Virus record (IMG/VR): IMGVR_UViG_2579778802_000015
Reading direction: 5' to 3' (one strand)
DNA length: 48,953 bases
DNA from: a virus
Lineage: Duplodnaviria; Heunggongvirae; Uroviricota; Caudoviricetes
The notes under the pieces were generated by a model, which was not told the DNA's origin, did no database searches, and saw only the letters and a list, made by a program, of their open reading frames with translations. This document shows, piece by piece, positions 14,461-15,680 of the stretch. Made by a program: the position numbers and the translations under genes. Positions within the stretch are counted from its first letter, which is position 1; every line of letters starts with the position of its first letter.

Positions 14461-15680
14461 TTTCCGCCTCCTGCATCCCGCCCACGTTTTGCAGCCAGAG
14501 TCCAGCCGGATGAATGAATGTCTCCGGGCTTATCGCCGGTCATGCTGTTGCAGTGCCACAACGAGCCGCCCCACGTCACTGTATCGCCGGGGTGGTAGAT
14601 TTCACCGGCTCTGAACACACCGCGGTAGAGCATCACCGGCAGGGAAAATGTTTTTTCCGTACACTGGCCACTGCTCTGCCGGATCACCACAGAGAACGAC
14701 CGTTCACTAATCATGCTGACGTCAATATCCGCCACCCCGTCAACCAGGCATTCCCATCCCCGCATCCCGTGCGTTTTTTCATACGCCCGCCAGAGTCCGC
14801 CCTGGTGTGTGGCATACGTGCCCCGGGGAAAGGATTTTTGATCGTCAATGGCGGGGAGTATTTCCAGTGCCGTGGCATCACGCCCGTCCTGCGGAACCGG
14901 CAGGGCACTCACCGCATCATTCACCGCCTGCTGCAGTACATCCGGATCGTAGTCACGACCATCACGCGGGACTGGGATATGACTTACGGCCTCTTTCACC
15001 ATCTGCTCAAGCATCGGACGCACATCATCCGGGGTGATACTTTTTCCGTCCGCCGGTAGCGGAATATTTGCGACCGCATCATTCACCGCCTTCTGCAGAA
15101 CATCGGGATCATAGTCACGACCGTCGCGCGGAACAGGAATATGGCTTACCGCCTCCTTCACCATCTGTTCAAGCATCGGACGCACATCATCCGGGGTGAT
15201 ACTTTTTCCGTCCGCCGGTAGCGGAATATTTGCGACCGCATCATTCACCGCCTTCTGCAGAACATCGGGATCATAGTCACGACCGTCGCGCGGAACAGGA
15301 ATATGGCTTACCGCCTCCTTCACCATCTGTTCAAGCATCGGACGCACATCATCCGGGGTGAGACTTTTACCGTCTGCCGGCTGCGGAATATTTGCAACCG
15401 CATCATTCACCGCCTGCTGCAGTACTTCCGGATCGTAGTCGCGACCGTCACGCGGTACCGGAATGGCCCCCACCGCATCATCCAACATCGCCTGCAGAAC
15501 AGAGCGAACCTCATCCAGCGTCACATGCTTCTGTAGTACCGCGGACAGGGAAGCCAGTTTCTCTTCAGACTGCTGCGCCTGCGCGGCCATCTTTTCTTCA
15601 AATGTACGCTGTAAATCCGTTATCACCGCGGCGAATTCTTCGCCCAGTGCACGGATAATGGACAGTTCACGTTCATTCAT
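14457..15680 (-). CDS. Virion-module protein with four tandem 56-aa repeats, function unknown
   Basis: 407 aa; repeat unit IPVPRDGRDYDPDVLQKAVNDAVANIPLPADGKSITPDDVRPMLEQMVKEAVSH occurs four times; between portal and connector genes. Confidence 0.7.
   Translation of the reverse strand: MNERELSIIRALGEEFAAVITDLQRTFEEKMAAQAQQSEEKLASLSAVLQKHVTLDEVRSVLQAMLDDAVGAIPVPRDGRDYDPEVLQQAVNDAVANIPQPADGKSLTPDDVRPMLEQMVKEAVSHIPVPRDGRDYDPDVLQKAVNDAVANIPLPADGKSITPDDVRPMLEQMVKEAVSHIPVPRDGRDYDPDVLQKAVNDAVANIPLPADGKSITPDDVRPMLEQMVKEAVSHIPVPRDGRDYDPDVLQQAVNDAVSALPVPQDGRDATALEILPAIDDQKSFPRGTYATHQGGLWRAYEKTHGMRGWECLVDGVADIDVSMISERSFSVVIRQSSGQCTEKTFSLPVMLYRGVFRAGEIYHPGDTVTWGGSLWHCNSMTGDKPGDIHSSGWTLAAKRGRDAGGGK
14825..15467. 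repeat. Four tandem copies of a 168-bp in-frame repeat (two copies identical)
   Basis: Direct DNA repeats visible at 15061-15228 and 15229-15396, with diverged flanking copies. Confidence 0.85.

Follow-up and report, generated by a model that had tools for sequence, protein, structure and literature searches.

Several described systems resemble parts of the locus analyzed here, a repeat-bearing gene that we call X, located in a 48,953-nt stretch of Caudoviricetes DNA (IMG/VR record IMGVR_UViG_2579778802_000015, hereafter the window) that belongs to a lambdoid E. coli prophage. The C-terminal barrel of the P22 portal is a helical extension of the portal that reaches into the capsid as one continuous coiled-coil helix, and to our knowledge the C-terminal end lies inside the capsid in every solved portal structure. 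External fibers such as the T4 fibritin whiskers, the phi29 head fibers and the tail fibers with collagen and carbohydrate-binding module (CBM) parts combine an anchor, a repeat stalk and a carbohydrate-binding-like tip, while CBM5/12 modules proper (PF02839) are found on glycoside hydrolases (Serratia ChiB; the ChBD of Streptomyces ChiC). Coding tandem repeats with copy-number polymorphism are also an already known kind of feature. Lastly, the MuF proteins (SPP1 gp7, Mu gpF) are encoded after the portal, have variable C-terminal modules and are predicted to be packaged in the head, as proposed for MuF-fused polymorphic toxins (PMC3482391).

X shares traits with all of these and coincides with none. 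It is always encoded directly after an HK97-family portal gene and forms the C-terminal half of the portal open reading frame (ORF) in approximately 30% of relatives, yet the portal domain (PF04860/TIGR01537) is absent from it and its database name is taken from its neighbor. The P22 barrel occupies the position that would be expected of a portal-fused X, but has no tandem modules, no beta domain, no separate gene and no apparent sequence relationship to X. Unlike the MuF proteins, X has a constant, lectin-like C-terminal module and varies in repeat number instead, and Pfam scans gave no match of the MuF domain PF04233 to X or to nine diverse homologs. The fibers have the same overall layout as X, but they are external and not fused to portals, and the stalk of X is made of loop-helix modules rather than coiled coil or collagen. 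We are nearly certain that the array in X is a coding minisatellite that keeps the reading frame, and that X is an accessory protein coupled to the portal; such a protein with a stalk of loop-helix modules, occurring in free and fused forms, is a variant for which we found no counterpart in the literature searched.

X is a 407-aa ORF (14457–15680; this and all other features of the window are on the minus strand unless stated otherwise), recognized from the ORF list, phrog_2271 and phrog_1289, and encodes a 44.4-kDa protein with an isoelectric point of 4.75 and a net charge of approximately −23, of which −16 falls within the repeats. Tandem Repeats Finder (TRF) called an array at 14911–15464 with a period of 162 nt, 3.4 copies, 92% matches, no indels and a score of 912, the single sizeable tandem array in the whole window. 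The first-pass annotation of this DNA had described four tandem 168-bp repeats of a 56-aa unit at 14825–15467. The array is indeed almost exactly there, but its period is 162 nt, since self-identity is 91% at an offset of 162 vs. 28% at an offset of 168. The true unit is thus 54 codons, and the units lie head-to-tail and translate in frame without indels. The count of four copies was a rounded one, as the protein register (aa 73–289; 14814–15464) contains three complete units of 54 aa, half of a fourth and a degenerate remnant. Each unit is divided into two diverged halves, A (25 aa; IPVPRDGRDYDPDVLQKAVNDAVAN) and B (29 aa; IPLPADGKSITPDDVRPMLEQMVKEAVSH), and at the DNA level this appears as a second repeat level, with eight copies of a motif of approximately 63 nt at a spacing of 75/87 nt. 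Based on TRF, self-comparison and the predicted helix/loop pattern, we delimit the array to aa 73–259 (14904–15464), composed of A1 (15390–15464), B1 (15303–15389), A2 (15228–15302), B2 (15141–15227), A3 (15066–15140), B3 (14979–15065) and A4 (14904–14978), while the degenerate last half unit (aa 260–289; 14814–14903), beginning LPVPQDGRD, joins the array to the C-terminal domain. Three ORFs on the plus strand across the array (14514–15059, 14807–15037, 15303–15536) were also considered and were rejected as shadows of the minus-strand gene, with no supporting homology.

The units also carry signs of recent change. Self-comparison revealed an exact direct duplicate within 15007–15361, in which 15007–15199 equals 15169–15361. 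This run of 193 nt is the longest exact one at an offset of 162 and amounts to one whole unit exactly duplicated in that register; it cannot be due to chance and is the mark of a recent duplication or gene conversion. The claim that two DNA copies are identical therefore holds in one register only: when the units are cut at the IPxP motif, units 2 and 3 are 97.5% identical as DNA and 100% identical as protein, with all differences being synonymous.

Compared across related prophages, the copy number is variable rather than invariant. Measured from the start Met to the stop in 78 related loci, X has 353 aa (18 loci), 379 aa (3), 405/407 aa (46), 461 aa (8), 515 aa (1) or 569 aa (2), the step being 54 aa. 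The array follows the pattern (AB)n A A', with n = 2 in 16 loci, 3 in 48, 4 in seven, and 5 and 6 in one each, plus a few irregular forms. The clearest case comes from two Stx2c phages, Stx2c_2409 and Stx2c_PV98-693, for which a 9.2-kb alignment contains 37 mismatches, all within the first 2.4 kb; over the remaining ~6.8 kb, including X, the sole difference is one exact 162-bp gap inside the array, which, judged from this alignment, is a recent unit change. Units are also more alike within a locus than between loci (median identity 95.1 vs. 90.7%), as fits ongoing unequal exchange or gene conversion. Taken together, the 54-aa steps, the range of n from 2 to 6, the exact indel and the within-locus similarity support what the first-pass annotation had suggested, namely recent expansion with whole-unit changes in copy number and length variation by slipped recombination. 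Many or most database entries for X are partial and end inside the array, showing that short-read assemblies collapse or break there, and copy numbers published from draft genomes are unreliable at such a 162-bp array.

Upstream of X lies a 454-aa HK97-family portal gene (15677–17041; PF04860, E = 2.5e-81; TIGR01537, E = 5.5e-106). Both family matches are confined to aa 45–388 of this ORF, which comprises a portal domain (aa 54–382) and, beyond it, a crown-like helix and an acidic linker. In the same family hidden Markov model (HMM) scans X matched neither PF04860 nor TIGR01537, and thus is not a portal protein. Downstream, the start of a gene for a gp6-like head-tail connector (Ad1; 14134–14460; PF05135; phrog_40) overlaps the X stop codon, with a head completion protein gene beyond it. 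For the window, it is thus correct to place X between the genes for the portal and the head-tail connector, while in many relatives its sequence is the C-terminal half of a single portal ORF of ~860 aa. In the window, portal and X are two polypeptides: the portal TGA stop (15677–15679) and the X ATG (15678–15680) overlap in an ATGA at 15677–15680, an arrangement that would be expected to couple their translation. Sequence comparison places a tract of five G residues on the coding strand (15692–15696; CCCCC on the plus strand), and the AGGGGG at this tract forms a Shine–Dalgarno-like element 10–11 nt upstream of the X start codon. Database models reflect the joined form. PHROG 2271 ("portal protein," 859 positions) is matched by the portal ORF at 1–451 and by X at 455–859, NCBIfam has no model for X, and precomputed matches on X-type proteins list PF28083.1. 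An exact look-up found the X protein at NCBI as "carbohydrate binding domain protein" and "putative phage portal protein."

The predicted structure of X falls into three parts. In an AlphaFold2 (AF2) model of the full-length monomer, the N-terminal region (aa 1–72; 15465–15680) forms a 47-residue helix (aa 3–49) and a second helix (aa 55–71), with a predicted local distance difference test (pLDDT) score of 56–69, and may serve as an anchoring or oligomerization element beside the portal. In the repeat region, each half unit is consistently modeled as a 12-residue Pro/Asp/Gly loop followed by a helix of 13–17 residues. A profile search against PDB sequences returned designed helical-repeat proteins only, through their periodic composition, and we take these matches as a hint of helical-repeat character, not of homology. 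The C-terminal part (aa 265–407; 14460–14888) is an all-beta domain with a predicted CBM5/12-like fold, modeled with pLDDT > 90 when aa 206–407 were submitted with 40 homologs. It has the small beta fold of chitin-binding domains, it contains Trp (residues 297, 370 and 375), Gly and Cys positions that do not vary within the family, two Cys positions being conserved, and its neighbors in BFVD are collagen/ChiC_BD phage proteins. PF02839 (CBM_5_12) scores 19.0 bits on X (E = 1.4e-3), below the gathering cut-off of 26.2 bits, and up to 24.8 bits in relatives, where 33 of 40 have E ≤ 0.01 (best 6e-7). X is thus likened to CBM5/12 modules by predicted fold, and unlike those modules its domain sits on a phage head-module protein, not a glycoside hydrolase.

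X belongs to a large family. A full HMMER scan of representative proteins (50% clusters) retrieved 5363 at E ≤ 1e-3 and 634 at E ≤ 1e-30, and in the listed set lengths range from 123 to 1237 aa with a median of 400. Most members are stand-alone proteins with 0 to 19 recognizable modules, and in one, the 1237-aa P0198, a fusion to the portal has arisen independently, with repeats of another type (PEPEPLPDI...). The gene order TerL, protease/capsid, small ORFs, portal, X, and connector or head-completion genes recurs in Pseudomonas putida, Variovorax and a metagenome contig; in these three distant loci X overlaps the end of the portal gene by 8–14 nt, has its own Shine–Dalgarno sequence and lacks the homopolymer. 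The placement of X is the same in Pseudomonas phage PAJU2 (gp07) and Rhizobium phage RHph_X2_26. Since X is separate in these distant phages, a separate and translationally coupled X gene is widespread and probably ancestral, which would make the fusion in E. coli the derived state. Names in the databases ("portal protein," "gp6-like head-tail connector protein," "carbohydrate binding domain protein") are borrowed and uninformative. The member sequences have no portal domain, and "gp6-like head-tail connector" was rejected as the identity of the homologs, the connector domain being absent from their sequences.

In connection with the fused state, a single base decides which form a locus takes. 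The window has G5 (TTCAGGGGGATACTG) and two ORFs, whereas fused relatives have G6, as in phage 2851 with one 859-aa portal ORF and E. coli S7 with one 807-aa ORF. The 78 loci all have a readable junction, 49 being split and 29 fused; in IMG/VR as a whole, 95 stretches carry the G5 junction and 41 carry the G6 junction. The number of junction haplotypes is at least 15 for G5 and approximately five for G6, and two haplotypes occur in both states, so that the indel must have recurred or been moved by recombination. Outside the repeats, the dN/dS of X is 0.27 over 845 split-split pairs, and of 51 split loci, 49 encode a full-length X. We therefore regard X in the split state as almost certainly under purifying selection, to judge from these substitution patterns.

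These data bear on two readings of the junction. According to one, the prophage is decaying, its portal gene is frameshifted and X is what is left of the 3' half, a dead sequence with a repeat that has no present function. In favor of it, relatives exist with a single ORF of 807–859 aa, the 99.5%-identical locus of strain 2013C-3033, the closest relative, is annotated "phage portal protein, frameshifted" by the NCBI Prokaryotic Genome Annotation Pipeline (PGAP), and several phage records label the split arrangement "portal protein (pseudogene)." However, the split state is the majority state, always at the identical site and with the ATGA overlap, on many haplotypes; it is present in the sequenced genome of phage BP-4795, where X has 461 aa; units 2 and 3 differ by synonymous changes only; and distant relatives have a separate overlapping gene with its own ribosome-binding signal. 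We consider a dead gene very unlikely, and a one-off pseudogenizing mutation was rejected in view of the many haplotypes, the intact ORFs, the dN/dS and the separate genes of distant phages; the "frameshifted portal" label is most likely a naming artifact stemming from fused relatives. It is just as improbable, in our estimation, that the G tract is a switch, toggling between G5 and G6 to give free or fused X, or a recoding site with a −1 slip on A_GGG_GGA in G5, by which X would be covalently attached to a minority of the portal subunits. Parallels to such recoding exist in the tail-chaperone G/GT frameshift and in T7 10A/10B. A −1 slip of Gly-tRNA on GGG would yield exactly the fused frame (..FRGDTEKM..), and both states occur on an identical junction haplotype in at least two backgrounds. 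On the other hand, G5 and G6 are short for slippage at a high rate, the junction UUC AGG GGG AUA CUG has no canonical X_XXY_YYZ heptamer (a single-tRNA slip on GGG may nonetheless occur), the nearest hairpin-like element, judged by eye, is ~45 nt downstream and too distant for a stimulator, which would be expected at 5–9 nt, and distant relatives have no homopolymer at the junction.

The explanation that we favor combines the minisatellite with a function at the portal. Replication slippage or unequal recombination between near-identical units would add or remove units, and each change would lengthen or shorten a spacer, or stalk, between the N-terminal anchor and the beta domain, whose putative partner may be a glycan or something else. 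The N-terminal helix would bind the portal vertex; a physical association of X with this vertex is suggested by the conserved adjacency, the translational coupling and the two independent fusions. X would then be located, during assembly if not later, on the portal's inner (crown) side, and since known portal C-termini lie in the capsid interior, a fused X should start on that side. Whereas the repeat, the gain and loss of units, the split gene, the G-tract fusion and the selection on X are near certain, we hold this explanation as a whole to be probable, by a limited measure, and the inner-side placement on its own to be evenly poised in our analysis. Several points weigh against the favored explanation. 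CBM5/12-plus-collagen tips are typical of external fibers and sit badly with the capsid interior; a charge of approximately −23 per chain, multiplied by up to 12 chains, beside packed DNA is not obviously favorable; the monomer model gives the repeats a pLDDT below 50, so that the stalk may be flexible or need oligomerization; some G5/G6 calls in draft assemblies are possibly homopolymer sequencing errors, a caution that applies to the switch as well; and we found no experiment or virion proteome for any family member in the literature searched.

X may instead be an external neck or collar fiber, with its helix docked outside the portal-connector junction, an adjustable repeat stalk and a CBM5/12-like tip that binds host glycans reversibly. 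The C-terminal domain resembles chitin-binding modules and phage tail-fiber tips as well as collagen/ChiC_BD phage fiber proteins; a short collagen-like G-X-Y run forms the end of the homologs P0153, P0275 and P0233; fibers are usually laid out as an anchor, a variable stalk and a lectin tip; the X gene directly precedes the head-tail connector genes; and the two conserved Cys of the beta domain would suit an extracellular disulfide. This is difficult to reconcile with a covalent fusion to the portal C-terminus that arose at least two times and reaches ~30% of loci, because with portal C-termini inside the capsid, as is established, a fused X must thread out or be non-functional. We consider the external fiber a tentative alternative, clearly less likely than a portal-bound X on the inner side. 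The first-pass annotation's suggestion of a surface-exposed variable virion protein, to which the external fiber essentially corresponds, is not supported as it was put, with the portal fusion on one side and the fiber-tip-like fold on the other. A further possibility overlaps with the favored inner-side placement, namely that X acts in assembly only, as a portal-bound, scaffold-like factor that places one portal per procapsid and is then removed by the prohead protease. X is acidic, helical and extended like scaffolding proteins and is coupled or fused to the portal, and the head module has no separate scaffold gene, with the protease being fused to the capsid protein. However, the conserved CBM5/12-like domain with its invariant Trp has no obvious scaffolding role, and a family-wide range of repeat numbers of ~20-fold would be odd for a scaffold that sets dimensions, and a purely transient role is thus unlikely in our view. 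Returning to the favored explanation, X may even represent a large class of portal-vertex proteins (>5000 clusters at 50% identity, in phages of Proteobacteria), in which modules set the length of a lectin stalk and the G tract repeatedly converts free and portal-fused forms into each other, but this broader generalization is doubtful.

Some neighboring genes deserve mention in their own right. In the closest relative, the annotation describes a lambdoid prophage from integrase through tail fibers. Upstream of the portal, a 645-aa ORF (17253–19190) is a fusion of a prohead serine protease (Peptidase_S78, aa 48–152) and an HK97-type major capsid protein (aa 386–635), and the order TerL, protease/capsid, small ORF, portal differs from that of HK97 itself; such a fusion is also annotated in Pseudomonas phage PAJU2 and was seen in the P. 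putida prophage. Between capsid and portal lies a conserved 73-aa ORF (16987–17208) that extends over the portal start and matches no Pfam family, and a small ORF is found at this position in the Pseudomonas, Variovorax and PAJU2 relatives as well. Three to four extra genes are present among the head-tail joining genes in L085/L087 (7173–9422) and L222 (6565–8508), these loci being from Variovorax, a metagenome and PAJU2. The block follows X in L085/L087 and the adaptor and head-closure genes in PAJU2. One of its genes weakly resembles methyltransferases, and another bears a sialyltransferase annotation in PAJU2. Further along the window, the major tail tube protein (12207–12992) has a C-terminal immunoglobulin-like domain (Ig_2/I-set, aa 172–256, E ~1e-7), by sequence a probable second glycan-adhesion-type accessory domain on the virion. 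At 11522–12201, Phage_TAC_1 (124 aa) and Phage_tail_T (93 aa) form a tail assembly chaperone pair whose arrangement resembles that of lambda G/GT, with a programmed −1 frameshift to be expected in such a layout. Lastly, a 667-aa SASA-family carbohydrate esterase with DUF1737 and DUF6645 domains (25261–27264) is of a type common in Stx-type lambdoid prophages.

The X locus is common and has been sequenced many times, while its annotation is systematically misleading. Thousands of ~860-aa "portal proteins" of prophages in E. coli, including enterohaemorrhagic strains, are really a portal plus a second protein, and many loci called as "frameshifted portal" pseudogenes probably consist of two intact genes, which bears on which Stx prophages are judged defective. 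As the 162-bp units break short-read assembly, copy number can be read from long reads only, and values obtained in this way could help to type Stx phages at a fine scale. The location and ligand of X, once found, would extend the list of components at the siphophage portal vertex. On the broader reading of X as a class of portal-vertex proteins, a location inside the capsid would make it either a modular, length-variable portal "barrel" or an ejected glycan- or peptidoglycan-binding protein in siphophages, and a location outside would make it a neck fiber of a new kind.

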